Below, piece after piece: positions 15,444-63,383 of a DNA stretch of 64,000 nucleotides. How positions within the stretch are numbered: position 1 is the first letter of the stretch; each line of letters starts with the position of its first letter. The notes under the pieces are model-generated. The model made no database searches. It saw only the letters and a program-made list of their open reading frames with translations, and was not told where the DNA came from. A program made the translations under genes and the position numbers. Source of the stretch: Candidatus Zixiibacteriota bacterium (lineage in GTDB: Bacteria > Zixibacteria > MSB-5A5 > WJJR01 > JAJRUJ01); contig JAJRUJ010000024.1 of assembly GCA_024277855.1 (NCBI GenBank), positions 17,568 to 81,567 of the forward strand. The letters are read 5' to 3'.

Positions 15444-16691
15444 ATGACCTCAGCCGAAACAGAAAGCCCCGCTCACCACCTGTTGTTTATCGCCTGCTCC
15501 TATCCCCCGGTTGGGGGAACAGCTGCACGCGGCAACCGCGAGACGGTCAAACAACTGTTGAAAGCCGGTTATCGGGTGACGGTGATTGGTGCGGATTTTA
15601 CAGCTTATCCTCGAGACGATTCCCTGGATTCACCGGCGCCAGACAACCGGGTTTTCCGTTTCCCGGCTGACGATTCAGATACGCTGATTGCCCGGGCGCG
15701 CCGCTTTCTCCGTGTTCCTCCCGGACGAGTGTCCGACCGCTGGTCGCGGGAAATATTCGATCTGGCCGTCAGAATCTTCGCACAGGACCCGCCCGAATTG
15801 GTCTATACCGTTTTTGGCCATGGCAGCGAACATCTTGCGGCGTTGAAATTGCGGCAGCAGTTCTCTTTTTGCTGGGTCGCCGAATTCCGTGATCCCTGGG
15901 TGGGCAACTGGATTGATGAGGAATATCTGCGACAGCGCGCGATTTCGGCCTGGGCCAAACATCTCTGTTTGCGCGGACGGCAGTCGTTGAAACAGATCGT
16001 TAAAACCGCCGATATGCTTTTGGTCGAATCACCGGCACATCGGCAGATGATTGTCGATTTGTTCGGCCAATCCGGCAAGATTCTGGTCAACTATCTGGGC
16101 ACCGATGCCGATATTGCCGCGTCCGCAATACCTCCAGACACGCACTTTGGCCGTCGCCCGGTGATCGGTTTTGTCGGTAAAACCTACTTCGGGTATGACC
16201 AATTGGGAGAAATATTTATTCGCGCGCTAAAACAGCTTGAAAGCGACCAAATACCGTTTTCCTTTGTCAGTGCCGGTGATAATTTTTTCCCGGCGATTGC
16301 CAAACTTGAAAAATTGCAAAATTACAAATCGTTGGGACAACTGCCGTATCCGGAGGCCATCGGCCTGGTGGCCGAGATTGATTTCTCGCTGGTGCTGATC
16401 CCCGAGGCGTATCCCGGTAATATCAACAGCAAGATATATGAGGCGATTCAACTGGGAACACCGATTTTGGGACTGGTCCCTCGGCAGGGAAATATGGCCG
16501 AATTAATTGAAACCTACCGTCTGGGACGGGTGTTGCCGCTGTCGGTGACGGCCTTGACCGAGGCCCTGCGCGAGGTGTTACAATCACCGAATACCGCCGG
16601 CGGCGAAATCTCGACCGAGGCAAAACACACTTTTGCCAAACAGACACTGATGCAGCCGGTGCTCGAACAGATCGGAAAGTTAATCCGATGA
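15444..16691 (+). CDS. Glycosyltransferase, GT-B fold (family 4/1-like)
   Basis: C-terminal KIYEAIQLGTPILG motif region typical of GT4. AGGAG ribosome-binding site. Start overlaps the next gene (ATGA). Confidence 0.6.
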   Translation: MTSAETESPAHHLLFIACSYPPVGGTAARGNRETVKQLLKAGYRVTVIGADFTAYPRDDSLDSPAPDNRVFRFPADDSDTLIARARRFLRVPPGRVSDRWSREIFDLAVRIFAQDPPELVYTVFGHGSEHLAALKLRQQFSFCWVAEFRDPWVGNWIDEEYLRQRAISAWAKHLCLRGRQSLKQIVKTADMLLVESPAHRQMIVDLFGQSGKILVNYLGTDADIAASAIPPDTHFGRRPVIGFVGKTYFGYDQLGEIFIRALKQLESDQIPFSFVSAGDNFFPAIAKLEKLQNYKSLGQLPYPEAIGLVAEIDFSLVLIPEAYPGNINSKIYEAIQLGTPILGLVPRQGNMAELIETYRLGRVLPLSVTALTEALREVLQSPNTAGGEISTEAKHTFAKQTLMQPVLEQIGKLIR

Positions 16692-18229
16692 AAGAGCAGC
16701 GTCTCTCGATCAACGCCCTGGTCAAGCTGGGCAATCTGGTTGTCGATGGGGTTATTGCGCTGATTGTCGTGGCCTATTTTGTCGGCCGACTCGGCGCCGA
16801 GGCGTACGGCCTGGTGCCCTGGCTGAGTTCGTTGCTCGTTTTTTTCACCATTATCCCGACTGCGGTGCAGACCGCCGCCGGCCGTTTTGTCACCCATGCG
16901 CTCGGCCGGGGCAAATCGGTCGAGGCCGGTCGTTACTATGGAACCTCATCCCTCATCCTGATCGGTCTGGGTTTCTGCGGTTTTGCGGTTACGGTTGGTC
17001 TGGCTCTGCTGGCCGACCGCTTCTTCCCGTTTGCGCCGGAATTTTTGGGCGACGCCCAAGCTCTTACGCTGTTGCTGGGCGCGTCAGTCTGCCTGGATAT
17101 TGCGCGCAGCGGGTGGGCCGTCGCCTATTTCACCCGTCAACGATTCGACCTGGAATACGGCGTGATGATCGCCGGGGGACTCGTACGGTTGACCTTGATT
17201 ATTGGCCTGTCTGAGCTATATGGCGTCTCGTTACTCTGGCTTGGTGTGGGTACGCTGGCCGGAGCAATTTTACGAACCGTCGCCGGCTGGTATTATGCCC
17301 GACTGCTCCTGCCAGGCATGCGGATTTTCCCCCGGACTTTCGACCGGACGCTGTTGCGGCCCCTCTCGGTGTTTGCTTTCGACGTACTGATTGCCGGAGT
17401 CGGCCTGATCATCCTCAGCCAGGCAGACATCCTGATCGCCGGCTGGCTGCTGGGCTCGGCGGCGGTGACCATGTATTTTTGCGGGGCGAAATGGGGACTG
17501 CTTTTCCGCGCGGTGATCGGTTCGTTCACGACCGTGCTGGTTCCGCGTTTTACCATACTCCAAGCCGAAGGAAAGATCGACCAATTGCAATCGCTGGTTC
17601 GGCGTGCCGACCGGTTGATCATGCCGCTGGGCTGGTTGATGGCCTGCCTGTTATTCGCGCTTGCCCGACCATTAATCCTCACCTGGGTCGGCCCGGAACA
17701 GTCCGGGGCGGTCAATGTTCTGCGGGTCATCGCTTTTCCCATGGCCATCACTGTCAGCGCCTATGTCTCGATTTCCCTCCTGATCGGCATTGGCCAAATA
17801 CGGGAAAGTTCACTCTCGGCGCTGGTAATTGCGCTGATCAACCCGGCGCTGTCGATTTTTGCGGTCATCCGGCTCGAATGGGGGATAATCGGCATCGCCC
17901 TGGCCTCGGCAATCTGTTTGACCGCCCGCAACGGTCTCTACCTGCCGCTGTTAGTCCGGCGATATGCCCAAATACCGCTGGCCACATATTACCGACGCAT
18001 GATCGTTAGCGCCCTGGCGGCGTTACCCTCGCTGGCCTCGGCCTATCTGGCCGCGCAGTATGTTGACCTGATTGGCTGGGGCCGGATCGTGCCGGCTACG
18101 GTTGTCTGTAGTTTGCCGTCACTGGCAATTATTCTTTTGGTCATCGCCCAACCCGAAGACCGCCGATTGCTGCGCAGTCTACTCCCTTTTTATCGGCATG
18201 ATCCGGCCTTGCCGGATCAAAGGTCTTAA
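16688..18229 (+). CDS. Polysaccharide/oligosaccharide flippase, MOP superfamily (Wzx-like), about 14 TM
   Basis: 513 aa, polytopic, MATE/Wzx-like helix pattern. Translationally coupled to the GT gene. Confidence 0.65.
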   Translation: MKEQRLSINALVKLGNLVVDGVIALIVVAYFVGRLGAEAYGLVPWLSSLLVFFTIIPTAVQTAAGRFVTHALGRGKSVEAGRYYGTSSLILIGLGFCGFAVTVGLALLADRFFPFAPEFLGDAQALTLLLGASVCLDIARSGWAVAYFTRQRFDLEYGVMIAGGLVRLTLIIGLSELYGVSLLWLGVGTLAGAILRTVAGWYYARLLLPGMRIFPRTFDRTLLRPLSVFAFDVLIAGVGLIILSQADILIAGWLLGSAAVTMYFCGAKWGLLFRAVIGSFTTVLVPRFTILQAEGKIDQLQSLVRRADRLIMPLGWLMACLLFALARPLILTWVGPEQSGAVNVLRVIAFPMAITVSAYVSISLLIGIGQIRESSLSALVIALINPALSIFAVIRLEWGIIGIALASAICLTARNGLYLPLLVRRYAQIPLATYYRRMIVSALAALPSLASAYLAAQYVDLIGWGRIVPATVVCSLPSLAIILLVIAQPEDRRLLRSLLPFYRHDPALPDQRS

Positions 18230-18247: not shown

Positions 18248-18766
18248 TCAGTCCTTGCTGAAAATCCAGAATTTCTTCTTCCAGTGTGAACGGAATTCGA
18301 AATCGATGGTCTGGTTCCAGCGTTCCTGGGCGGCGCTGTTAAACAACGTCAGGTGCAATTTGCAATACAACGCTTCGGGATCGGTCGGCAGACGCACACC
18401 GGGATATCGCCGCTCGAAAGCGGTGATCTCGGTTTGTTGATTGTCGAAGGTGAATTGCAGGTGTTGGGTTTGCAGGGCGTTGCCCTCCGGCAGAAAAATC
18501 TCGACCGAATCGATGCCCAGCCGATAACGGCGGAATGACGGCGAGATATCGGCCGCCACGACCATTGTATACTCTTCGATTTGTCCGCTGATCCCCTGTT
18601 CCAGCCGCTCCAGTCGGGGAGTGATCGTCCAGCCCTCGATTGTCGCCTCCTCGGCGATCTCGGGGCGGACAAATTGGTGATAGCGATTGAACCCACAGCC
18701 GGCCGCCATTGTAACCAATACCGCCATCGTGAGTGCATACAAAACCCGGACAATATTCATCTTCAT
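18248..18766 (-). CDS. Lipoprotein, hypothetical
   Basis: Signal peptide with a lipobox-like AAGC Cys (MKMNIVRVLYALTMAVLVTMAAGCG). No family recognised. Confidence 0.5.
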   Translation of the reverse strand: MKMNIVRVLYALTMAVLVTMAAGCGFNRYHQFVRPEIAEEATIEGWTITPRLERLEQGISGQIEEYTMVVAADISPSFRRYRLGIDSVEIFLPEGNALQTQHLQFTFDNQQTEITAFERRYPGVRLPTDPEALYCKLHLTLFNSAAQERWNQTIDFEFRSHWKKKFWIFSKD

Positions 18767-27519: not shown

Positions 27520-27664
27520 ACAATAGAGCAACAGAGTGTATCAGGGCGCCCCGGCTTCCGGATGCCATATTACCTTATTGACGGCATTGTCAGCAGTTGT
27601 TCTTGACAGTTGGCAAAATCCGAAGTCCGATCCCATTCCCTATGCTTCATGAGCCAAAATTCGC

Positions 27665-27693
27665 TTGACTTTACCTTGTGAAAACAATAGTTA
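27665..27693 (+). promoter_or_regulatory. Candidate sigma-70-type promoter for the nuo cluster (TTGACT-17 nt-TAGTTA)
   Basis: Hexamers read directly from sequence about 35-60 nt upstream of the nuoA start. Untested. Confidence 0.25.
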
Positions 27694-27727
27694 GGCCCTT
27701 TCAAACCCCCGTTTGTGTGGGGGGCGG

Positions 27728-28108
27728 ATGTCGGTTATCTTGGGGAGCTTTTTGGTGTCTGAATACGCAGCCGTTGCTGTCTTTCTGCTGGTAGGCACGG
27801 GGATCGTCCTCTTTACTTTTGGCTTGGCCAAAGTTATCCGGCCATCCAATCCCACGCCAATCAAACTGGAAACATATGAATGTGGCGAAACCCCGTATGG
27901 GACCGCCGAGATTCAATATAATGTTCGCTTCTATATCTATGCCTTGCTGTTTGTTATCTTTGACGTCGAGGCGATTTTCCTTTTCCCCTGGGCGCTGGTC
28001 TACCGCAGTCTGGGGCTGTTCGCTTTTGTCGAGATGTTTATTTTCATCGCGATGTTGGTGTTTGGTTTGTTTTACGCCTGGAAAAAGGGCGTACTGAAAT
28101 GGGTTTAA
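27728..28108 (+). CDS. nuoA: NADH-quinone oxidoreductase subunit A
   Basis: ECGETPYG...RFYIYALLFVIFDVEAIFLFPWA is the canonical NuoA/ND3 signature. Confidence 0.85.
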   Translation: MSVILGSFLVSEYAAVAVFLLVGTGIVLFTFGLAKVIRPSNPTPIKLETYECGETPYGTAEIQYNVRFYIYALLFVIFDVEAIFLFPWALVYRSLGLFAFVEMFIFIAMLVFGLFYAWKKGVLKWV

Positions 28109-28137
28109 TGTAGCCGGTTCGCTCGGCAGACGATAAT

Positions 28138-29190
28138 ATGTTTGAACTTAGGGGATTAATCGACACGATCTGGGGCTGGATCGCCGGGTTGCTGGCCGAT
28201 ATCGGGCTATCTGCCGGTCTGGTCCAATTGATCGGTTACGCGATTATCGCCGCCGTGCTTTTCGGCGTCATCGCCCTTGTCGTGCTGTTTTTGGTCTGGT
28301 GGGAACGCAAGGTTTCGGCCAAAATGCAGGATCGCCTGGGCCCGATGCGGGTTGGCTGGCACGGGATAATCCAGACTATCGCCGACGCAATGAAGTTGCT
28401 GCAAAAAGAAGATATCACTCCGAAGAACATTGATTTCCCGATACATTTCTGGGCGCCGGTTATCACCTTCGTCGCCGCCTTCATGGTCTACGTGACTGTC
28501 CCTTTCGGTAAAGGTCTCATCGTCGCCGACTTAAATGTCGGCGTTCTTTATATTATTGCGATTACGACGTTCACGGTCATCGGCCTGCTGATGGCCGGCT
28601 GGGGTTCAAATAACAAATATGCGCTCCTGGGAGGGTTCCGCTCGGCGGCGCAGGTTGTCTCCTACGAAGTACCGCTCACGCTGTCTTTGCTGGGTGTGAT
28701 TATGATTTCCCAAACACTCTCGCTGGGGACGATAGTCGGCCAGCAGGACGGCTTCTTTAAGTGGTATGTCTGGCGGCAGCCGCTGGGTTTTGTGATTTTC
28801 TGGATTGCCGCCACTGCCGAATGTAACCGGACACCGTTTGACCTGCCGGAGGCCGACTCCGAACTGGTAGCCGGTTTTGTAACCGAATACTCCGGGATGA
28901 AATTCGCGATGTTCTTCCTGGCCGAATTTCTGAATATGTTTACCGCTTCGGTGGTTGCGGTCACCTTGTTTTTCGGTGGCTGGATGTCGCCGTTTGGCCC
29001 GGATTTCGGGCCGTCCTGGCTGTGGTTTTTCGCCAAGACGTTTTTCTTTGTGTTCGTGTTGATGTGGTTCCGCTGGACCTACCCACGATTGCGGGTCGAC
29101 CAGTTGATGGGATTTGCCTGGAAAGTGCTGTTGCCGCTGGCGTTTTTGAATATCCTGCTGACCGGCCTCGGCATTTACATTTTTGATTGA
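28138..29190 (+). CDS. nuoH: NADH-quinone oxidoreductase subunit H
   Basis: ERK(V)SAKMQDRLGP...G..Q..AD..KL motifs of NuoH/ND1. 29 nt after nuoA with no B/C/D genes between. Confidence 0.9.
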   Translation: MFELRGLIDTIWGWIAGLLADIGLSAGLVQLIGYAIIAAVLFGVIALVVLFLVWWERKVSAKMQDRLGPMRVGWHGIIQTIADAMKLLQKEDITPKNIDFPIHFWAPVITFVAAFMVYVTVPFGKGLIVADLNVGVLYIIAITTFTVIGLLMAGWGSNNKYALLGGFRSAAQVVSYEVPLTLSLLGVIMISQTLSLGTIVGQQDGFFKWYVWRQPLGFVIFWIAATAECNRTPFDLPEADSELVAGFVTEYSGMKFAMFFLAEFLNMFTASVVAVTLFFGGWMSPFGPDFGPSWLWFFAKTFFFVFVLMWFRWTYPRLRVDQLMGFAWKVLLPLAFLNILLTGLGIYIFD

Positions 29191-29202
29191 TGACCGGATG
29201 TG

Positions 29203-29706
29203 ATGATGACTGACGCATTTTTGACCAACCTGGCGTTTTATGTGATCTCGTTCTGCGTGATCGCCGGCGGTATCTTTGTGGTCAGTTCTCGGAATTTGTT
29301 CCATTCCGCGGTTTTTCTGGTCTTTACGCTCTTTTCGGTGGCCGGGATCTTTGTGATGCTGTCGGCCTACCTGTTGGCTGCGATCCAGGTGCTGGTTTAT
29401 GTCGGCGCGGTGGCGATGCTGATGATTTTTGGCGTGATGCTGACCACGCAGTTGTCTAATGTCCGGATCCGCTATATGAATGAACAGGTCTGGCCGGCAT
29501 TGTTGATCTGCGCGGGTTTCCTGGCCCTGCTGGTTTACGGCTTGACCGACACTCCTTTTGCTACCGGGAATGTGGCGGCCCCCGTTGAAGGAGCCAAAGC
29601 AATCGGCACATTGTTAATGACCAAGTATGTTCTGCCGTTTGAAATGGTTTCCGTCCTCCTGCTGGCGGCATTGGTCGGCGCGATAGTTATTGCCAAGAAG
29701 GATTGA
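29203..29706 (+). CDS. nuoJ: NADH-quinone oxidoreductase subunit J
   Basis: NuoJ/ND6-like 5-TM protein. Starts 9-15 nt after the nuoH stop, so no nuoI is present. Confidence 0.85.
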   Translation: MMTDAFLTNLAFYVISFCVIAGGIFVVSSRNLFHSAVFLVFTLFSVAGIFVMLSAYLLAAIQVLVYVGAVAMLMIFGVMLTTQLSNVRIRYMNEQVWPALLICAGFLALLVYGLTDTPFATGNVAAPVEGAKAIGTLLMTKYVLPFEMVSVLLLAALVGAIVIAKKD

Positions 29707-29713
29707 TAAGGTA

Positions 29714-30034
29714 ATGGGATCGGCGACAATCGGCTTAAATCATTTTCTGGTCCTCTCGGGAATCCTGTTTACGATTGGGATGTTCGGGGTATTGACCCGG
29801 CGCAACGCAATTGCAGTGTTGATGTCGACTGAATTGATGTTTAACGCGGTGAATATCACCCTGGTCGCTTTTTCCCGCTATCTGGCACCGGCGGCGTTTA
29901 CCGGTCAGATTGTCGCGTTTTTTACAATTATCATCGCAGCGGCCGAGGCCACTGTGGCATTGGCCATTGTCTTGTTGATTTATCGCAGTTTCCAGGGGAT
30001 CAATGTCGACCGGATCAATTTCATGAAATGGTAA
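29714..30034 (+). CDS. nuoK: NADH-quinone oxidoreductase subunit K
   Basis: ND4L signature ...LMSTELMFNAVNITLVAFS.... Confidence 0.85.
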   Translation: MGSATIGLNHFLVLSGILFTIGMFGVLTRRNAIAVLMSTELMFNAVNITLVAFSRYLAPAAFTGQIVAFFTIIIAAAEATVALAIVLLIYRSFQGINVDRINFMKW

Positions 30035-30051
30035 GAATGGTTCTGTAAATT

Positions 30052-31965
30052 ATGTTGCAAAACGCCTGGATCATACCCGCCCTGCCGCTGACGGCATTTG
30101 TGCTGATTGTGTTTTTCACCCATCGGCACCGGGCGCTCTCGGCCGGCATCTCGATTGCGGCAATTATCGGCGGATTCGCCTATTCGATTCCGGTCCTTTT
30201 CAGACTCATCGCCGACCACGGCCCGCATGAATATTTCTTCAACTGGCTGGAATTCGGGTCGTTTAATCTGGAAATTGGTCTTTTGATCGATCCACTGACG
30301 GCAGTGATGCTGTTGGTGGTAACGATTGTCTCATCGTGTGTGCAAATATACTCACTGGGATACATGCACGGCGATTCGCGTTATTCGCGGTATTTCGCCT
30401 ACTTGTCATTGTTTACGTTCTCAATGCTCGGGCTGGTTCTCTCGAACAACTTTGCGATGATTTTCATCTTCTGGGAACTGGTGGGGTTAACCTCATATCT
30501 GCTGATCGGTTTCTGGTTCGAGAAAAAATCCGCTTCCGACGCCGGCAAGAAAGCGTTCATCACCACCCGTACCGGCGATCTCGGTTTTATTGTCGGGATC
30601 TTGATTACTCTGTATGCCTGCGGTACGCTGAATTTCGGCGAGGTCTTCACCAAGATTGAAACCGGCGTTTTCGCCGGCGGGCTGGTCACCGCGGCGGCGA
30701 TTTTCATTTTTGCCGGTGCGGTCGGCAAATCGGCGCAGTTCCCGCTGCATGTCTGGCTGCCCGACGCGATGGAAGGTCCGACACCGGTTTCGGCGTTGAT
30801 CCACGCCGCCACGATGGTGGCCGCCGGGGTTTACCTGGTGGCGCGCGGGATGACGATATTTATGGCCTCGGATACCGCGGCGTTGGTTGTGGCGATTATC
30901 GGCATCACGACGTCGTTTATGGCCGCATCGATTGCGTTGGTGCAAATCGACATCAAACGGGTGCTGGCGTATTCGACGGTCAGCCAGCTTGGGTATATGA
31001 TCATGGCCCTGGGTCTCGGCGGGTATGGTGCCGGGACGTTCCACTTGATGACCCATGCATTTTTCAAATCCCTGCTCTTCCTCTGCGCCGGCTCAGTGAT
31101 CCATGCCGTCCACACCAACGACATGCTGGAGATGGGCGGGTTGAGCAAGAAGATGAAGATCACGGCAGCGACAATGTTCATTGCCTCGTTCTCCATCGCG
31201 GGGATCTTCCCCCTCTCGGGCTTCTGGTCCAAAGACGAGATTGTCGCTTCGACCATCGGCCACCCGATTTTCATGGTGCTGACGCTGCTGGTCGCCTTTA
31301 TGACCGCGTTCTATATGTTCCGGCTGTGTTTTTTAACCTTTACCGGGGCGCCGCGCGACCAGGAAAAATTCGACCACGCCCATGAATCGCCGAAGACAAT
31401 GACCTACCCGTTGATGTTTCTGGCGTTTTTGGCGGTATTTGCCGGCTGGGTGGGCATTCCCTGGTTGCCCCACAGCTGGTCGTCATTTGTCTATTACGGC
31501 GAAGTGGAGCACGCGAGTTTCCATTTCGGCCTGGCGGGAATTTCGCTTGCAATCGGGTTATCCGGGATTGGCCTGGCATATTTGATGTATTACAAGAAGT
31601 CGATCTCGGCGTAAAAAATCGCCGAGAAATTCAAACCGCTGTATATCCTGTTGTACAACAAATATTATTTCGATGAAATTTACGATGCAATCTTTGTCCA
31701 GCCCCTCTATGCCATGTGCGATTTCTGGTTCTGGTTTGACCAGAAAATCATCGACGGGCTGGTAAATGGCGCGGCAACGCTGACGATCTGGTGGGGCGAG
31801 ATCAAACGCTGGTTTGATGAGCACATTGTCGATGGCGCGGTCAATGGCGCCGGCATCACCATCCGTGGCACCGGCGGCCTGTTGCGTTTTGCCCAGACCG
31901 GCCGGTTGCAAAATTACGCCCTGGTCGTCTTTGCCGGGATCGTCCTGATTTGGTTTTTGGGGTAG
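30052..31965 (+). pseudogene. nuoL: NADH-quinone oxidoreductase subunit L, interrupted by a single in-frame TAA at 31612-31614 (637 codons if read through)
   Basis: Track ORFs 30052..31614 and 31651..31965 are in the same frame with no other stops between them. The second ORF carries the conserved NuoL C-terminal motif LLYNKYYFDEIYD and the region encoding the long lateral helix. There is no ribosome-binding site before the TTG of the second ORF. Confidence 0.8.
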
Positions 31966-32003
31966 ATAACACTCGAAGCGCGAAATAGAAAACGGAGCAG
32001 ACA

Positions 32004-33476
32004 ATGAGCGGTATACTTTCCTGGATGATTTTCATTCCCTTGATCGGCGGGGTAGTCATCCTCTTTTTCAACCAGGAACAGAAGACAGCCATCCGGAGTG
32101 TGGCGACCTTGACCACGTCGGTCGTGCTGGGGATTTCGTTTATCCTGCTGGCGCAATACAACCCCTCGAACCCCACAATGCAATTTGTGGAGAGGGCGTC
32201 CTGGATTCCGGTGTTGAATGTATACTATTATATCGGCGCCGACGGTATTTCTATCCCCATGTTGTTTCTGACGGCGTTGCTGTCGCTGATCTCCATTGTC
32301 GCCTCATTCGGCATTGAAAAACGGGTCAAAGAATATTTCGCATTCTTCCTGCTCCTGGAATGCGGAATGATGGGTGTTTTTGCCTCGTTGGATTTCTTCC
32401 TGTTCTATGTGTTCTGGGAAGTGATGCTCGTGCCGATGTATTTCTTAATCGGGGTCTGGGGCGGACCGCGGAAAGAATATGCCGCCATCAAGTTTTTCCT
32501 CTATACTTTATTCGGCTCGATATTCATGCTGGTCGGCATTCTGCTTTTGTATTTCAATACCACGCCGCACACGCTTTCGTTTACCGAGCTGGTTGCCGGC
32601 GGACCGACGCTTTCACATAATTTGCAGTTGCTGGTTTTTGTTTTCTTCTTCATCGCCTTTGCAATCAAGATTCCGGCCTGGCCATTCCATACCTGGCTGC
32701 CCGATGCGCATGTGGAAGCCCCGACCGCGGTGTCGGTCATTCTTGCCGGCGTGCTGCTGAAGATGGGCACTTACGGCCTCTTGCGGATTTCGCTCCCGAT
32801 GCTGCCCTATGGCACAAACTACTTCGTTTGGCCGATGGCGATTATCGGAGTGATCGGGATTATTTACGGCGCGCTGGTTTGCATGGCGCAGACGGACTTG
32901 AAGAAGCTGGTGGCCTATTCCTCGGTTTCACACATGGGCTACTGCCTGCTCGGGATAGCGGCGGTGACCTCGTTGGCGGGGATCGAGGGTTGCATGTTCC
33001 AGATGTTCTCGCACGGCTTGATCACCGGCGCGCTCTTCCTTTTAGTCGGCGTCATCTACGACCGGGCACATACACGCGATATCAACGCCTTTGGCGGACT
33101 CTGGTTGAAACTGCCGGTCTACTCCGGTGTGATGATCCTGTTTGTCATGGGCTCGCTCGGCTTGCCCGGGCTGTCCGGATTTGTTTCGGAATTCATGGTC
33201 TTTATCGGGTCGTTCCCGACGTTCACTTGGTTGACCGGTATTGCGGTTCTTGGTGTGTTGTTGACCGCCGGGTATTTCCTGCGAATGGTGCAACGGGTAT
33301 TCCTCGGCGAGTTTAATGAAAAGTGGGAGGGCAAGCTGCCCGACATGAAATTCCGCGAGATATTCACAATCGTCCCGTTGGCGGTTTTGATGATCGCGAT
33401 TGGGTTTTACCCGAAAATACTGACCTACTGGATGCAGCCAACACTGGAACATCTGATCAAATTGATTGCGCGTTAA
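32004..33476 (+). CDS. nuoM: NADH-quinone oxidoreductase subunit M
   Basis: ND4-type antiporter-like subunit, 490 aa. GGAG ribosome-binding site. Confidence 0.9.
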   Translation: MSGILSWMIFIPLIGGVVILFFNQEQKTAIRSVATLTTSVVLGISFILLAQYNPSNPTMQFVERASWIPVLNVYYYIGADGISIPMLFLTALLSLISIVASFGIEKRVKEYFAFFLLLECGMMGVFASLDFFLFYVFWEVMLVPMYFLIGVWGGPRKEYAAIKFFLYTLFGSIFMLVGILLLYFNTTPHTLSFTELVAGGPTLSHNLQLLVFVFFFIAFAIKIPAWPFHTWLPDAHVEAPTAVSVILAGVLLKMGTYGLLRISLPMLPYGTNYFVWPMAIIGVIGIIYGALVCMAQTDLKKLVAYSSVSHMGYCLLGIAAVTSLAGIEGCMFQMFSHGLITGALFLLVGVIYDRAHTRDINAFGGLWLKLPVYSGVMILFVMGSLGLPGLSGFVSEFMVFIGSFPTFTWLTGIAVLGVLLTAGYFLRMVQRVFLGEFNEKWEGKLPDMKFREIFTIVPLAVLMIAIGFYPKILTYWMQPTLEHLIKLIAR

Positions 33477-33494
33477 GTTGGTAATGGTGGGATA

Positions 33495-34958
33495 ATGAAT
33501 ATCTCGTTTGCGGAAATGTACGGCACACTGGGATTGATCGTTCCGGAGGTTGTCCTGCTGGTGCTGGCCGCGCTGGTCCTGACGATGGGGCTCAGCAAAC
33601 GGCGGTCCAGCGGCTCGCTGGCAATTATTTCGCTTTTCTCGCTGGCGGTCACCACCGTGCTGGTGCTGACTATCGGTGAGGGTACGGCATTCGGCGTGAT
33701 GTTCTTGGCCGATGGGTATGCGCGCGTTTTCAAATTGATCATCCTGTTGAGCGCCATGTTCACCGTGGCCTCATCGGTCGGCATCACCGAAAAGTTCCCC
33801 GCGCATAAAGGTGAGTATTACGGAGTTTTGCTTCTGTCGGTGGTCGGGATGATGTTTATGGTCTCGGCGGGCGAGTTGCTCACCATGTTTGTCGCCCTCG
33901 AGTTGTCCACAGTCTCGCTTTTCGTCCTGGCCGCCTTTAACAAACGCGATACCAAATCGGCCGAAGCCGGGCTGAAATATGTGATCCTCGGCTCAATTTC
34001 CTCGGCGGTGATGATTTACGGCATCGCGTTACTCTACGGCCTGACCGGAACAACTGAGATTGCCGGGCTGAAAGAAGGCCTGCAGAAGATGTATTTCGCC
34101 TCGGGCGGTTTCCCACGCGGCTTCTTTGTGGCGGTGATCCTCCTGGTTGCCGGGTTCGGATTCAAGCTTTCATTGGTTCCCTTCCATATGTGGGCGCCTG
34201 ATGTGTATGAAGGCGCCCCGACCCCGATCACGGCATATTTATCGGTGGCCTCCAAAGGCGCCGGGTTGGCGATATTCCTGCGCGTATTCTTCGGTGGGTT
34301 GATCAACGGCGCGGAAGTCTGGCTGCCGGTGTTGACTACGCTGGCCGCGCTGGCCATGATTGTCGGCAATATTACCGCAGTCGTGCAACGCAATATCAAG
34401 CGCATGCTGGCCTTTTCTTCGATTGCCCATATCGGGTATATTCTCGTCGCGGTTGTCTCCATTAACGCGCGCGGCGTATCGGCAATGACTTTCTATTTGT
34501 TTGTCTATCTCTTCGCCAACATGGGCGCTTTCATTTGTACTATCGTTTTTTCGCAGGCAACCAAATCCGATTTGATCCCCGACTACGCGGGGCTGTCCAA
34601 ACGTTCACCGGTTTTGGCGGCGTTTATGTCGATCTTCCTGCTCTCGCTGGCCGGGATTCCGCCGCTGGCCGGGTTTGTCGGCAAGTACTATGTTTTCATG
34701 GCGGCAATCCAACAGCAATATATATGGCTGGTAATAATCGCCTTGCTGACGTCGGTGATCGCGGTGTACTACTATGCGTATGTAATCTGGAAGATGTATT
34801 TCCCGAAAGAGGGCGACTACCCGACCGATCCGGTGCCGCTGCCGAAGACAATGGCCGTAATCCTTTCGGTGGCGACTGCCGGTATCTTTATTGTCGGTGT
34901 CTATCCGAAACCGTTTTTAGATTACGCCGTCGCCGCCGCGCGGACATTGCTGCCGTAG
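33495..34958 (+). CDS. nuoN: NADH-quinone oxidoreductase subunit N
   Basis: ND2-type antiporter-like subunit, 487 aa. Last gene of the cluster. Confidence 0.9.
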   Translation: MNISFAEMYGTLGLIVPEVVLLVLAALVLTMGLSKRRSSGSLAIISLFSLAVTTVLVLTIGEGTAFGVMFLADGYARVFKLIILLSAMFTVASSVGITEKFPAHKGEYYGVLLLSVVGMMFMVSAGELLTMFVALELSTVSLFVLAAFNKRDTKSAEAGLKYVILGSISSAVMIYGIALLYGLTGTTEIAGLKEGLQKMYFASGGFPRGFFVAVILLVAGFGFKLSLVPFHMWAPDVYEGAPTPITAYLSVASKGAGLAIFLRVFFGGLINGAEVWLPVLTTLAALAMIVGNITAVVQRNIKRMLAFSSIAHIGYILVAVVSINARGVSAMTFYLFVYLFANMGAFICTIVFSQATKSDLIPDYAGLSKRSPVLAAFMSIFLLSLAGIPPLAGFVGKYYVFMAAIQQQYIWLVIIALLTSVIAVYYYAYVIWKMYFPKEGDYPTDPVPLPKTMAVILSVATAGIFIVGVYPKPFLDYAVAAARTLLP

Positions 34959-34986
34959 GAAAATAAATTGGAATCGAGATTTGATA

Positions 34987-35010
34987 CCCCGTCTCTTGGC
35001 GGGGTTTTTT
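34987..35010 (+). terminator. Rho-independent terminator downstream of nuoN
   Basis: CCCCG-tctcttgg-CGGGG hairpin followed by TTTTTTGTT. Confidence 0.6.
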
Positions 35011-35062
35011 GTTGGGGTATACCCAAGGGATTTTGCAGCAATTGTCAATTATAGTATAGTCT

Positions 35063-35117
35063 GGGTATCCCACACCCTGGGGGCGCAGGCCGCTTGCGGT
35101 GGGATTCGATATTCATG
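35063..35117 (+). repeat. REP-like palindromic element, copy A (GGGTATCCCACACC...CCGCTTGCGGTGGGATTCGATATTCA)
   Basis: Shares GGGTA(T/C)CCCAC and GGTGGGATTCG(R)(W)ATTCA blocks with copy B, and in inverse orientation with copy C, flanking the RAYT gene. Confidence 0.5.
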
Positions 35118-35213
35118 CTGTCAATCAATGATTCATCCGTTAGGCAAATCGTCAGGCCGCATGCCGAAAAGTTCCTCCGTCTTGTTCGAAAGTAGTCGAT
35201 TGGGACACAATTC

Positions 35214-35264
35214 GGGTACCCCACTCCGCCGGGGCGGACGGTGGGATTCGGAATTCACGACCAA
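35214..35264 (+). repeat. REP-like palindromic element, copy B
   Basis: GGGTACCCCACTCCGCCGGGGCGGACGGTGGGATTCGGAATTCA. Overlaps the 3' end of the RAYT gene. Confidence 0.5.
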
Positions 35265-35788
35265 TCAGTACCAATCTTCAGCAGTCCGGATTCTTCTCCC
35301 AGATACGCACGGTAGCTGGACCACCGCCATTCCTCGATTCGTTGAGCAAACCCGGCCCGGACGGGGTTTGCGTGACAATATTGTATCTTCTCTTTAACGG
35401 TTTCAACTGTCCGACAGTTATGATCATAACATCGGCGTTGCCAGAAAACAAGTCGGATATTTCCACTTCGATTTACTTGCAGCCGCGATAGTCTGTAATC
35501 TTTCACGGTCCGCCATCGCTCCAGAATCTTCCTTGCCGAACGAGATTTGACTTCACCGATAACTCGTCCCAACTTGATTGCCGCATGCGGATAAATAACC
35601 AGATGCACATGATTGGGCATAACAACGTAGGACAGCACAGAGAAATTGTATTCCATTCTTGCAGCCTCAATTTCCTCAAGGAGAATGCCAATATCCTCTT
35701 CATTGGTCAGCAGATGATATTTTCGATGGCAAGCAAACGTCACGAATCGTGCTGTGCCGAGATTGTCATAATGATGGAGCCGAGTCAT
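35255..35788 (-). mobile_element. REP-associated tyrosine transposase (RAYT / IS200-like Y1 HuH transposase) gene
   Basis: HuH motif MPNHVHLVIY, and the C-terminal block FWQRRCYDHNCRT...YCHANPVRAGFAQRIEEWRWSSY matches the RAYT pattern (WQ.RF/Y...Y...NPV...W.WSS). Flanked by REP-like repeats on both sides. Confidence 0.75.
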
Positions 35789-35830
35789 GCATTAAATTTT
35801 GCACATGAATCAGGGGGCTGTCAATCATTT

Positions 35831-35925
35831 CTCGATATTCCCACCGCAAGCGGGTGGGGTACCCAACATTGAAAAAAGACCCCACTGTCCGCCGTGGCGG
35901 AATGGGGATCGCCACTCATGCTGAA
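35831..35925 (-). repeat. REP-like elements in inverse orientation, copies C and D, upstream of the RAYT gene
   Basis: TCGATATTCCCACCGCAAGCGGGTGGGGTACCCAAC is the reverse complement of the copy-A core. It is followed by CCCCACTGTCCGCCGTGGCGGAATGGGGATCG, a degenerate copy-B-like element. Confidence 0.45.
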
Positions 35926-36793: not shown

Positions 36794-36927
36794 GTTCATC
36801 TCCTCCCGAACACCTGATGTCGGCAAATACCATAGTTTTTAGATCGTCGGTTTTGCCGGTAATTCAAGTATAACAGATGAATAGCGGGCAAGATATTCAC
36901 TTTAGGTATGCCGGCGCCGCACCCGGC

Positions 36928-37668
36928 TCAAGGCACCGTTCCCTCATGGAGACAAGTGACGCCGAAAGACAGCGACCTGGCCCGGACCGCGGTAAGCCCG
37001 GCTCGTTCCATGCGGTCGGCCAATTGCGCGGGGGTGAGAAAACCGGCGATCGACTCGGGAAGGTATTCATAGGCCTGCCGACGGCTGGAGATCAAACCAC
37101 CGAGGCGGGGAATGACCTGTTTGAAATACCAGTGAAAAAACCGTTTCGCTTGTCGATTGCGGGGGAAGGTCATCTCGAGCACAAAAACCCTGCCGCCGGG
37201 TTTGACCACCCGGCTCATCTCAGCCAACGCCCGGTCTTTGTCGGGGATATTGCGCAGGCCGAAGGCAATAGTCACCGCATCGAAAATATTATCGGCAAAA
37301 GGAAGTTCCAACGCGTCACCGGTGAGATATGCAATCCGCCCGGAGCATCCTCGACGCATCGATTTTTCCACCCCGACCGCCAACATTTCCCGCACAAAAT
37401 CTACACCGATGATTTTCGCCCCGGTGCGCCGCGCCAGGGCGAGCGCCATATCGCCGGTTCCCGAGGCGAGATCGAGAATCAATTCGGCCTCGGATGGAAC
37501 CCGGCCAGCGACAACTCGTCGCCAGTAGATGTCCTGGCAACCGGAGAGGATATGATTGAGCAGATCGTAACGCGGCGTGATCTCACGAAACATCCGGCGA
37601 ACCGCACTCACCCGTTCCTCGTCGGTCCAGTCGCCACTCGATTTTTCCGGCGGTTTTGCCTTCATCAA
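36928..37668 (-). CDS. ubiE: Demethylmenaquinone/ubiquinone C-methyltransferase, UbiE/MenG family
   Basis: UbiE signature, including SAM motif I LDLASGTGD. Confidence 0.85.
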   Translation of the reverse strand: MMKAKPPEKSSGDWTDEERVSAVRRMFREITPRYDLLNHILSGCQDIYWRRVVAGRVPSEAELILDLASGTGDMALALARRTGAKIIGVDFVREMLAVGVEKSMRRGCSGRIAYLTGDALELPFADNIFDAVTIAFGLRNIPDKDRALAEMSRVVKPGGRVFVLEMTFPRNRQAKRFFHWYFKQVIPRLGGLISSRRQAYEYLPESIAGFLTPAQLADRMERAGLTAVRARSLSFGVTCLHEGTVP

Positions 37669-37750
37669 GAACCAATATAACGTCTATCGGGGTAATGCGG
37701 GAGGGTAGAACGGCGACGGCCAGGCCGGTGACACTCTCTGATCATCGTGA

Positions 37751-61441: not shown

Positions 61442-63343
61442 TCACAGCGTAAAAGCGTCGATTTGCTCCATCGTGTCCGGATTGATCACTTCGACATTGA
61501 TCGCATCTCCGGCAACGTGGAACAAAACAAGGGCATTCTGAGTCGAGAATTTACGGACATGGTCCGACCAGGGAGCCGATTCCTGCCCATAATAGGGCGC
61601 GCCCGCCGCCCCGTTGTTGATTTGCCAGAGCGGCCGCGTGATTTGCAAACGAGCGCGTGGATAGTCGTCGGGGTAGATTACCATATCCGAGTCGATCCGT
61701 AACCGGCAATAATTATGTTCGTCCCCGGTAAGGACGGCTGCGACTTTGCTCGAACGATTGAGCAGGAGGTCGAGTAGCTGGTCCCGGCGTTCGATGATCC
61801 CTTTCTCGACCGGCTGTCCGGCAATAGACGGCCGGGGATCATTATTGCCGCGATACCACATAGCGCCCCGCACGTGCCCGCCGTTGGGAAAGACCGGATG
61901 GTGCAGCGTTACGAATACATGGTCGATATTATTATCGCTTTCCAGGCGCGCCAGCGTGGCCCCAAGCCACTCGAGCTGCCGGTCCATAATGTACCCAACA
62001 ATATTCCCGCCGGTCTGGCCGCGCAACCGCGAGGGCGCATACCAATAATTCGTATTGAGCACGACCATCGCCACGTTGTCGTAAATATAGTAAAAGACCG
62101 TTTCATCATAGGGCGGGAAATCCATGGTCACCGAATCGGGATCAGAGCGTGAACCGTCCTCGCTTTCCGGGCCGTTACGGGGATTGACAAAATTGGCGGC
62201 GAAAACCGCCTCGGAAGATTCGGTGGCGAAAGGGAACCGATCGACTCGCGCTCTGGAGTCTCCATTAGTGAATTGATAAAACACATTTTCATGGTTGCCG
62301 CAACCGATGATAAAGGGAAGATAATGAGCGTATGGTTCAATTCCCCGCTTGAAATTGGCATATTCCAGGTTGATCTCGCCGATCCCGGTCGTGAATCCGT
62401 CGATCAGATCCCCGGTGAATTGGAGAAACCGCACTTGCCGCTGGGTCGCCAATACCCCGATTCGTTTCATCATGTAGGCGTTTGTGCCCCAAATATCCCG
62501 CTCCCCCCCGCCGTTATTGCCGCGGGCATCGGACGCATAGGCAAAAGTAAACGGCAGACGCGAACCGGGGTGGGGCGCGGTGCGCAGGGAGTACGTATCG
62601 CTGTTGCCCCCGTAGTTTACCGAATATGGAAATGTTGAATCGGGAGCCAGACCGCTTAGTTGGATTTCATGATGACGGCCGGGAGCGTCCTCGCTGATCG
62701 TTTTCCCGTCAACGGTGACCCCGGCCATACACGGGAAATTCGTTTCAAAGGAGATGATCGCGCCGGTCGGCGTGATCATGTTGACGAACGGACCTTCGAC
62801 GATTGAAGTATCGACGGCCAACGGGCCGGTGCCCTGAAGGAGAATTTTGCCGTCGTAAAGGATAGTCCCTTCCTCGCTGACGATACGATAACCGAGGCGC
62901 AGACGGCCGGATTTCTCCCAGTTGGTAAAATCATACTTACCGTCTAAAGCGGTTTTAACCGGGATGACCGCCTGTCCCGATTCGATTTTCACTCCACTGT
63001 AAAAAACCGGGTAGGCATGCCTGACTTCGGTTGGGGAGTGGATCAAACCATAGTAGAGAGTTCCGGAAATCTCGTCATTGCCGAAGTCGAATTTTAGCGT
63101 ATCGCCGGTGGTGGTCAAATTGGCCCGTAATTGGTCGAGCGTATATGGCCCCTGTGCCTCGGTTTCCGGATAGACTTCTCCAGTCGAATCGGTGAAAATC
63201 AAATCACCGTCTGCCCGGGACAATCGCGAGTAAACCCCGGGAATTTCGGATTCTGTCCTTTCATCCGCCTGACCAGCGGAGACAATAAAGAGTGAAGACA
63301 ACACAGGCAGCAAGATCGTCCTCGTCAAACGGCGTAAATTCAT
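61442..63343 (-). CDS. Purple-acid-phosphatase-like metallophosphoesterase with N-terminal beta-sandwich domain, secreted
   Basis: MPP motifs GDLIDG, GNHE, LHHP, GDEHNY. Signal peptide from ATG 63343 (MNLRRLTRTILLPVLSSLFIVSA). Track frame extends to a TTG at 63361. Confidence 0.75.
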   Translation of the reverse strand: MNLRRLTRTILLPVLSSLFIVSAGQADERTESEIPGVYSRLSRADGDLIFTDSTGEVYPETEAQGPYTLDQLRANLTTTGDTLKFDFGNDEISGTLYYGLIHSPTEVRHAYPVFYSGVKIESGQAVIPVKTALDGKYDFTNWEKSGRLRLGYRIVSEEGTILYDGKILLQGTGPLAVDTSIVEGPFVNMITPTGAIISFETNFPCMAGVTVDGKTISEDAPGRHHEIQLSGLAPDSTFPYSVNYGGNSDTYSLRTAPHPGSRLPFTFAYASDARGNNGGGERDIWGTNAYMMKRIGVLATQRQVRFLQFTGDLIDGFTTGIGEINLEYANFKRGIEPYAHYLPFIIGCGNHENVFYQFTNGDSRARVDRFPFATESSEAVFAANFVNPRNGPESEDGSRSDPDSVTMDFPPYDETVFYYIYDNVAMVVLNTNYWYAPSRLRGQTGGNIVGYIMDRQLEWLGATLARLESDNNIDHVFVTLHHPVFPNGGHVRGAMWYRGNNDPRPSIAGQPVEKGIIERRDQLLDLLLNRSSKVAAVLTGDEHNYCRLRIDSDMVIYPDDYPRARLQITRPLWQINNGAAGAPYYGQESAPWSDHVRKFSTQNALVLFHVAGDAINVEVINPDTMEQIDAFTL

Positions 63344-63383
63344 CGGTGTCCGTCCCGCCAAATCGTCAGGTCGATAGTATTAA

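Follow-up and report, generated by a model that had tools for sequence, protein, structure and literature searches.

A conserved nuo operon encoding only the membrane arm of complex I in a clade of Zixibacteria

Most Zixibacteria encode complex I in a contiguous 11-gene operon, nuoABCDHIJKLMN, from which nuoE, nuoF and nuoG are absent, and the complex I of Zixibacterium RBG-1 also lacks NuoEFG (PMC3903129). The window analysed here, a 64,000-nucleotide stretch of contig JAJRUJ010000024.1 from a Zixibacteriota assembly, carries on its plus strand (27728-34958) a shorter set, nuoA-H-J-K-L-M-N, which encodes seven membrane subunits of complex I only: there are no nuoB/C/D genes between nuoA and nuoH, no nuoI between nuoH and nuoJ, and no nuoE/F/G. 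This raises the question of what such a membrane arm works with. In complex I, NuoH requires NuoB and NuoD to form the quinone site, so its partners have to be sought elsewhere; the initial annotation had said as much, and the point is accepted from established knowledge of that site.

All seven subunit families were detected by Pfam, each far above its gathering score (PF00507, PF00146, PF00499, PF00420, PF00662 with PF00361 in NuoL, and PF00361 again in NuoM and in NuoN). The Pfam identity of every ORF thus confirmed the membrane-arm-only content and the gene order first read from the sequence. The ND3 homologue nuoA (27728..28108, +; Oxidored_q4, 7.5e-37) encodes 126 aa from its ATG; the longest ORF has a TTG start at 27713, and NuoA of relatives is 117-118 aa long. 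It is followed by nuoH (28138..29190, +; ND1 homologue; NADHdh, 2.7e-124; 350 aa), which encodes the membrane half of the quinone cavity and whose best match among solved structures was cyanobacterial NdhA (6hum_A, 2.1e-88). Next come the ND6 homologue nuoJ (29200..29706, +; Oxidored_q3, 1.1e-37; 168 aa from a GTG start) and the ND4L homologue nuoK (29711..30034, +; Oxidored_q2, 2.5e-26; 107 aa). The nuoL gene is in two parts. Its N-terminal 520 codons (30052..31614, +; TM1-15; Proton_antipo_N and Proton_antipo_M) end at a premature TAA, and 116 C-terminal codons in the same frame (31615..31965, +) translate into the connecting segment, the lateral helix HL and TM16. The cluster is completed by the ND4 homologue nuoM (32004..33476, +; Proton_antipo_M, 4e-82; 490 aa) and the ND2 homologue nuoN (33495..34958, +; Proton_antipo_M, 1.4e-73; 487 aa).

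The intergenic gaps are 29 nt (A-H), 9 nt (H-J), 4 nt (J-K), 17 nt (K-L), 38 nt (L-M) and 18 nt (M-N). The first two leave no space for the missing nuo genes inside the cluster, as had been noted from the start. Upstream, the 208 nt between rluD and nuoA (27520..27727, +) may contain the promoter, with TTGACA at about 27604 and TTGACT at about 27665; as a promoter consensus scan of this region gave no site above chance level, the assignment is a presumed one. A hairpin resembling an intrinsic terminator (34986..35015, +; 8 bp with 6 G-C pairs, followed by TTTTTGTTGG) lies 28 nt past the nuoN stop and was ranked first in a terminator scan. No additional genes are found between the presumed promoter region and this hairpin, and Rfam and tRNA scans of the window gave no matches. 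The best explanation is that nuoA-H-J-K-L-M-N is a single transcription unit encoding a complete complex I membrane arm.

Each of the seven genes gave a dN/dS of 0.04-0.13 between the window and a close relative, L081, and so did the stretch of nuoL past the stop; between two other carriers of the operon (L001 and L084) the values were 0.04-0.10. When near-invariant sites were defined by conservation of 95% or more across 60-80 canonical proteins per subunit, 85-100% of them were retained in each subunit: 17/17 in NuoA (from 66 canonical NuoA), 70/73 in NuoH, 123/128 in the 520-codon part of NuoL, 79/79 in NuoM and 43/46 in NuoN. The YECGE loop and FDVE motif of NuoA were seen in the alignment and both conserved membrane glutamates of NuoK (STELMFN, AAAEATV) are present. 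The motif SKDE was read in the translation of NuoL, FWEV, AIKIPAWPFHTWLPDAH and VSEF in that of NuoM, and ALELS, GFKLSLVPFHMWAPD and VGKYY in that of NuoN. The charged residues of the proton path were thus encountered throughout, namely the TM5 Glu, TM7 Lys and TM12 Lys/Glu of NuoL/M/N, the two Glu of NuoK, FDVE of NuoA and the acidic TM5-6 loop of NuoH; the motifs were matched to named residues according to what is established for the families. Judged from their sequences, the seven proteins are under strong purifying selection and keep the residues for quinone-linked proton pumping.

In NuoH, conservation of the loops lining the quinone cavity is no lower in the clade that shares the seven-gene operon than in canonical clades; for the TM5-6 loop the identity is 94% within the clade vs 88% and 87% in canonical clades. 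Unlike canonical Zixibacteria, the clade also has fixed substitutions of its own in the NuoH loops facing the Q module (PEAEQELVAGFN to PEADSELVAGFV, and MRTGW to MRVGW).

The distribution of the layout was examined in related loci. Among 80 listed from species-representative genomes, 68 have the canonical layout (nuoD before nuoH and nuoI after it) and only two have the order A-H-J-K-L-M-N, namely L001, whose NuoH is 68% identical, and L053, a KSB1 locus. The window shares no flank synteny with these 80 loci, only with its close relatives L081-L083, which come from three different samples and have the same seven-gene operon preceded by the same genes (metallophosphoesterase, HD, RluD). The operon also occurs in L084-L087 and L093, and L094 has A-H-J-K-L as far as its short contig reaches. 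In relatives at 81-90% identity the genes are intact and arranged as in the window.

In a tree built by neighbour-joining only (concatenated NuoH, L, M and N; 64 loci, 1842 columns), nine Zixibacteria seven-gene loci and the window formed one clade (100/100 bootstraps) with branches that are not lengthened; one of the canonical Zixibacteria groups is its sister (99/100). L093 and L094 were assigned to the clade by NuoH distance only. The initial annotation had left the relation of the cluster to canonical complex I to a phylogeny of this kind, and the tree places it inside the canonical 11-gene radiation of Zixibacteria. All sampled members of the clade have the order A-H-J-K-L-M-N. The canonical Zixibacteria operon resembles that of the window in its seven corresponding subunits (43-75% identical by tblastn, per subunit), in shared gene order and in conserved residues, but in it nuoA and nuoH are separated by nuoB, nuoC and nuoD (about 2.1 kb), and nuoH and nuoJ by nuoI (about 0.6 kb).

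The absent genes were sought around the operon and beyond it. A tblastn search of the 64-kb window with Zixibacteria NuoB, C, D and I gave nothing better than E = 0.08, and Pfam found no peripheral-arm, NuoEFG or hydrogenase genes in the roughly 45 other long ORFs of the window; partner genes are therefore absent for 27 kb upstream and 29 kb downstream of the cluster. The flanks (up to 10 kb) of eight other distinct contexts carrying the seven-gene operon contained no Q-module genes either. No functionally linked neighbour was seen, the flanks of L001, L053 and L084-L087 consisting of unrelated housekeeping genes. In two contexts, not including the window, NadA is encoded downstream of the cluster.

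A stand-alone nuoBCDI cluster was not found using NuoD of L003 as the query and examining in context seven matches spanning the NuoD tree; these Zixibacteria-like NuoD proteins were all (7/7) encoded in canonical operons. Each of the 120 NuoD matches listed shared 72.6% identity or more with a NuoD encoded beside nuoH, so that the search stops short of the divergence expected for the seven-gene clade. In a NuoB profile search the scores saturated (340-364 bits) and no match was traced to a contig with a seven-gene operon. Finally, use was made of the fact that NCBI protein accession numbers are consecutive within one genome: with NuoL of six annotated genomes carrying the seven-gene operon as anchors, no NuoD or NuoB accession was found near the six among those readable.

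The explanation that we favour, with a probability of about 0.6, is that the Q-module genes are located elsewhere in the genome and that the enzyme is split but complete. It would be the 11-subunit complex I without NuoEFG that typifies Zixibacteria; its quinone and E-channel region would be formed, on the membrane side, by NuoH, A, J and K, and NuoL, M and N would be the antiporter-like pumps. The operon would once have been nuoABCDHIJKLMN and would have lost nuoB, C, D and I in an ancestor common to one clade of Zixibacteria, which would explain why nuoA abuts nuoH and nuoH abuts nuoJ. From the purifying selection and the pumping residues kept we infer both the existence of a NuoB/C/D/I module encoded elsewhere and its assembly with the seven membrane proteins. 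Cyanobacteria, whose ndh genes are scattered (ndhAIGE, ndhCKJ, ndhH, ndhB etc.), likewise encode the subunits of one enzyme at more than one locus, and it is their NdhA to which NuoH of the window is nearest among solved structures. The proposed case differs from theirs in being a clean split of the membrane arm from the Q module, of which only the membrane-arm locus was found here. Split layouts are reported to be common, most complex I clades mixing split and single-cluster arrangements (2025 survey, bioRxiv 10.1101/2025.03.13.643058). Against the split enzyme counts the fact that the searches made did not find a stand-alone nuoBCDI cluster.

The most serious alternative, although an unlikely one, is that the operon encodes an extra, specialised membrane arm which exists beside a complete complex I of another type and borrows, or competes for, its peripheral arm, a role that has been proposed for the partial operon of marine actinomycetes. 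There are precedents in actinomycetes. Salinispora has a seven-gene partial NDH-1 operon for the membrane part only (Penn & Jensen 2012, PMC3314556). In Salinispora, Streptomyces and Kocuria the genes are reported to run nuoAHJKLMN (PMC6676996), and all three genera carry this set alongside a full nuoA-N operon (PMC3314556, PMC6676996). For RBG-1, the one Zixibacterium described, two type-1 NADH dehydrogenases are reported (PMC3903129), which makes a second enzyme in the same genome plausible. The fixed NuoH loop changes of the clade (PEADSELVAGFV, MRVGW) would also fit adaptation to a different partner. However, the nesting of the clade within the canonical 11-gene radiation is the position expected of an orthologue and not of an old paralogue. 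Furthermore, NuoH and the Q module of a distant enzyme would need to fit at a co-evolved interface. Among the matches listed of the genome scan no assembly or contig has both the seven-gene and the canonical operon, and the two complete Zixibacteria chromosomes have only the canonical type; being seen only among the matches listed, this lack of a second locus is not proof. Between the split enzyme and an extra paralogous set, the indirect evidence favours the split enzyme.

The actinomycete cluster ('NDH-1 partial 2') has the same seven genes as the window, in the same reported order and in one operon-like cluster, but there it comes on top of a complete nuoA-N operon and has been interpreted as horizontally acquired (PMC3314556, PMC6676996). 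The cluster in the window descends from the operon of its own phylum, and only one copy of that type was seen. As it groups with Zixibacteria operons, an origin independent of the actinomycete partial operon is likely. The membrane-arm-only nuo operon is real and well conserved, and operons of its kind are on record from other bacteria. In the initial annotation the contrast with known operons was overstated, since nuoAHJKLMN had already been published (PMC3314556, PMC6676996) and split layouts are reported to be common (bioRxiv 10.1101/2025.03.13.643058).

It is improbable that the seven genes are an orphan module in a clade without NuoB/C/D/I, for example a Mrp-like ion transporter or an arm with an unrelated redox partner. 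Such a module would be consistent with the missing Q-module genes in the window and in the eight other contexts, and with the NuoD and NuoB searches, which gave no candidate partner; those searches are, however, too shallow to show absence. NuoL, M, N and K are homologous to subunits of the Mrp antiporter, which has NuoL-, NuoM/N- and NuoK-like subunits and works without a redox module. Mrp lacks NuoH, NuoA and NuoJ, and carries MrpB/E/F/G. In the cluster, by contrast, NuoH, A and J are all encoded, the quinone-cavity loops are intact, and Mrp-specific genes are lacking. In this clade few parts of the proteins are better conserved than the loops with which NuoH and NuoA, together with NuoB/D, build the quinone cavity, and as these loops serve only that cavity an orphan module is hard to accept. 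There is equally little reason to expect that the whole clade lacks the classical subunits and that its complete membrane arm, with a NuoH quinone-cavity loop that is highly constrained and specific to the clade, relies on an electron-input module that is very divergent or non-homologous, or is a new quinone-linked ion transporter. If closed genomes should prove to be without NuoB/C/D/I, the conserved quinone loops of NuoH would point to an unrecognised partner, and the fixed loop substitutions (PEADSELVAGFV) would offer a handle for finding one that co-evolves with it.

The interruption of nuoL was analysed separately. The TAA (31612-31614, +) is codon 521, in the loop after TM15, and the same frame remains open to 31965. 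At this site the window reads SISA*KIAEKF (GCG TAA AAA ATC) vs SISADAIAERF (GCT GAC GCG ATC) in L081-L083, where NuoL is intact at 637 aa. All seven NuoL relatives at 81-85% identity read through codon 521 with HL and TM16 on one polypeptide, and six of the seven have Asp-Ala at the position of the stop (P0001, P0003-P0006, P0008). The window assembly, split by the TAA, has no full-length NuoL of this kind; the truncated 520-aa product is also present in the protein collection (P0007, source NCBI). An AF2 model of an intact relative places TM15 at 492-514 and the start of the lateral helix at 537, and the stop would on this model remove the lateral helix and TM16. By eye, no Shine-Dalgarno-like sequence was seen upstream of either the internal TTG (31651) or the ATGs near 31710, so there is no convincing ribosome-binding site for separate translation of the C-terminal piece. 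An alternative genetic code was considered and rejected: TAA, TAG and TGA all end long ORFs in the window and no other gene is interrupted. The part past the stop is 80% identical to L081 with a dN/dS of 0.10. The TAA, private to this assembly and the sole in-frame stop seen interrupting a recognisable gene in the window, reflects either a nonsense mutation of very recent date or an error in the consensus or assembly.

The suspicion raised initially that this copy is decaying was not borne out: a duplicate or pseudogene cluster, suggested by the TAA and by an IS200-like transposase gene just downstream, is very improbable given a single lesion in 7.2 kb, strong constraint everywhere, as much beyond the nuoL stop as before it, near-invariant sites that are kept, and conservation of the operon over a deep clade with intact relatives of the same layout. 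For annotation this is a caution: when a metagenome-assembled genome shows a nuo cluster of membrane-arm genes only, the cluster should not be taken for an incomplete complex I or for a pseudogene. The seven-gene layout is stable, selected and common to a whole Zixibacteria clade, and it recurs outside it, the A-H-J-K-L-M-N arrangement being found in at least four other apparently unrelated lineages.

Seven ORFs on the forward strand (27728-34958) were assigned unambiguously by Pfam, in gene order, to NuoA (Oxidored_q4), NuoH (NADHdh, E = 2.7e-124), NuoJ (Oxidored_q3), NuoK (Oxidored_q2), NuoL (Proton_antipo_N and Proton_antipo_M), and NuoM and NuoN (Proton_antipo_M each). The gaps between them are 29, 9, 4, 17, 38 and 18 nt, a 208-nt spacer lies upstream of nuoA, and 28 nt past the nuoN stop begins the highest-ranking terminator-like hairpin of the region, an 8-bp stem followed by TTTTTGTTGG. 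Spacer, tight gaps and hairpin together indicate a single self-contained unit, preceded by genes for a metallophosphoesterase, an HD protein and RluD and followed by those for an IS200-like transposase and PheA. Pfam showed no peripheral-arm, NuoEFG or hydrogenase genes among the approximately 45 other long ORFs of the window, and tblastn with Zixibacteria queries found no NuoB, NuoC, NuoD or NuoI in its 64 kb (best E = 0.08), that is, in the 27 kb upstream and 29 kb downstream of the operon. The initial annotation had described a membrane-arm-only cluster in the order nuoA-H-J-K-L-M-N, and the domain assignments, the gaps and the absence of any peripheral-arm gene bear this out in every detail.

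A genome scan (one genome per species) gave at least 80 loci, and the closest among the matches listed were labelled Zixibacteria. The canonical layout, with nuoD before nuoH and nuoI after it, was present in 68 of the 80 loci listed and A-H-J-K-L-M-N in only two: L001, the closest of those listed (NuoH 68% identical), and L053, from a KSB1 bacterium. A NuoL protein search led to a class of 637/638-aa NuoL proteins and to contigs carrying the same seven-gene operon. It was seen in L081-L083, close relatives from three different samples whose NuoA and NuoH are 90% identical to those of the window and which share its upstream synteny, in L084 (GCA_054680595.1) and in L085-L087 (including GCA_036397555.1). 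A metagenome scan added L093, and L094 shows A-H-J-K-L up to the end of its short contig; these two were placed with the other seven-gene Zixibacteria loci by NuoH distance only.

In a neighbour-joining tree of concatenated NuoH, NuoL, NuoM and NuoN (64 loci, 1842 columns, 100 bootstraps) the window and nine seven-gene Zixibacteria loci formed one clade (100/100), inside the canonical Zixibacteria radiation and sister to one canonical group (99/100), without elongated branches. The KSB1 locus branched elsewhere. By NuoH distance L142, L162, L165 and L171 form a tight separate group (about 0.1 within it, at least 0.6 to any other compared sequence), and L151 and L160 each stand alone. These separate placements suggest that the arrangement arose probably at least five times. 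The four grouped loci are metagenome contigs with no nuoB/C/D/I around nuoH; only L171 (9532-16588) is visible through nuoN, the other contigs ending earlier.

In eight other distinct contexts of the seven-gene operon nuoB/C/D/I were likewise absent within up to 10 kb. A stand-alone cluster for the Q module (NuoB/C/D/I) was searched for and not found, at a depth too shallow for this to be evidence of absence. In NuoH, the loops forming the quinone cavity together with NuoB and NuoD are at least as conserved in the clade as in two canonical clades of similar depth: identity is 94% against 88% and 87% in the TM5-6 loop, and 80% against 73% and 71% in the TM1-2 loop. We infer that a Q module for this membrane arm exists, mainly because these constrained loops have no known role other than forming the quinone site. 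Fixed in the clade are PEAEQELVAGFN to PEADSELVAGFV in the TM5-6 loop (residues 240-249, window 28855-28884), MRTGW to MRVGW in a NuoH loop, and N57T in NuoK. The positions of the 240-249 change and of NuoK 57 are near-invariant in 70-80 canonical proteins, and the TM5-6 and N57T substitutions may reflect co-adaptation to a diverged Q module.

Most probably the operon encodes one half of an 11-subunit-type enzyme whose genes are split between loci. A live alternative is a second complex I whose peripheral arm is shared with the seven-gene membrane arm, since two type-1 NADH dehydrogenases have been reported in Zixibacterium RBG-1 (PMC3903129). Against this, among the genome-scan matches listed no assembly has both operon types and two complete Zixibacteria chromosomes have the canonical operon only. 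Because no assembly has both and the clade's tree position is orthologue-like, it can be argued that the cluster is not an extra copy but the clade's own form of the Zixibacteria enzyme. The operon would be surprising only if closed genomes of the clade proved to be without NuoB/C/D/I.

The initial annotation had also raised the question of a decaying copy; the cluster is not decaying. By the Nei-Gojobori method all seven genes have a dN/dS of 0.04-0.13 when the window is compared with L081, and the comparison of L001 with L084 gives 0.04-0.10. Sites at least 95% conserved across 60-80 proteins of canonical operons were almost all kept in five of five distinct clade members (NuoA 17/17, NuoH 70/73, NuoJ 11/13, NuoK 13/14, NuoL 123/128, NuoM 79/79, NuoN 43/46), proton-path residue motifs are legible directly in the sequences, and the quinone-cavity loops are conserved. 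The membrane-arm-only nuo operon is real and selected; the Zixibacteria case is new, the type of layout already described. The partial operon of Salinispora likewise has seven genes for the membrane part only (PMC3314556), its nuoAHJKLMN order and a synteny shared with Streptomyces and Kocuria are reported elsewhere (PMC6676996), and split and single-cluster layouts are mixed in most complex I clades in a 2025 survey (10.1101/2025.03.13.643058).

The nuoL gene of the window contains an in-frame stop, SISA*KIAEKFKPLY (GCG TAA AAA ATC); L081-L083 have SISADAIAERFKPLY (GCT GAC GCG ATC) at this site. The frame stays open here in each of the seven relatives at 81-85% identity; six have Asp-Ala at the site, and six of the seven have full-length NuoL (637-653 aa). 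Over the 116 codons past the stop, dN/dS between the window and L081 was 0.10. A 520-aa shortened NuoL with NCBI as its source was found in the protein collection, so the stop appears to be part of the deposited assembly. An AlphaFold2 model of P0004, an intact relative (mean pLDDT 73, lower at the C-terminus), assigns residues 492-514 to TM15, 537-589 and the continuation 596-615 to the long lateral helix, and 619-636 to TM16, the last transmembrane helix; by these positions the stop is predicted to remove precisely the lateral helix together with TM16. In truncation studies of E. coli NuoL, loss of this part reportedly impairs assembly and proton pumping. The TAA, private to this assembly, would be either a consensus error or a recent nonsense allele. 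An unusual genetic code was ruled out because nuoL is the only interrupted gene of the window and TAA, TAG and TGA are all in normal use.

Directly past the nuoN terminator, where synteny with L081-L083 stops, lies a transposase element (35090-35853) that could be REP-associated (RAYT-like). Its gene for an IS200/IS605-like Y1 transposase (PF01797), on the minus strand at 35255-35788, lies between the arms of a perfect inverted repeat of 15 nt (35090-35104 and 35839-35853), with two copies of GGTGGGATTCGRAWTTC nearby (35098 and 35240). Four sizeable ORFs of the window lack a Pfam match at E ≤ 1e-5: 16688-18229 (513 aa), 18248-18766 (172 aa), 36877-37680 (267 aa; also without one at ≤ 1e-3) and 61442-63361 (639 aa).

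In the KSB1 locus, with its independent A-H-J-K-L-M-N, the second conserved membrane Glu of NuoK (L053:11493-11801) is replaced by Ala (AAAAAAV vs AAAEATV). Another non-canonical layout, nuoA-C-D-H-J-K, occurs in a locus labelled Gemmatimonas (L036:495-4384), where NuoB and NuoI were not detected and no nuoL/M/N lies in the 9 kb past nuoK. An otherwise canonical Zixibacteria-like operon has two extra genes between nuoC and nuoD (L174:6474-7863), a 360-aa DUF4352 protein and an 81-aa ORF, and three canonical operons (L088, L089 and L174) carry a 72-aa ORF between nuoK and nuoL.
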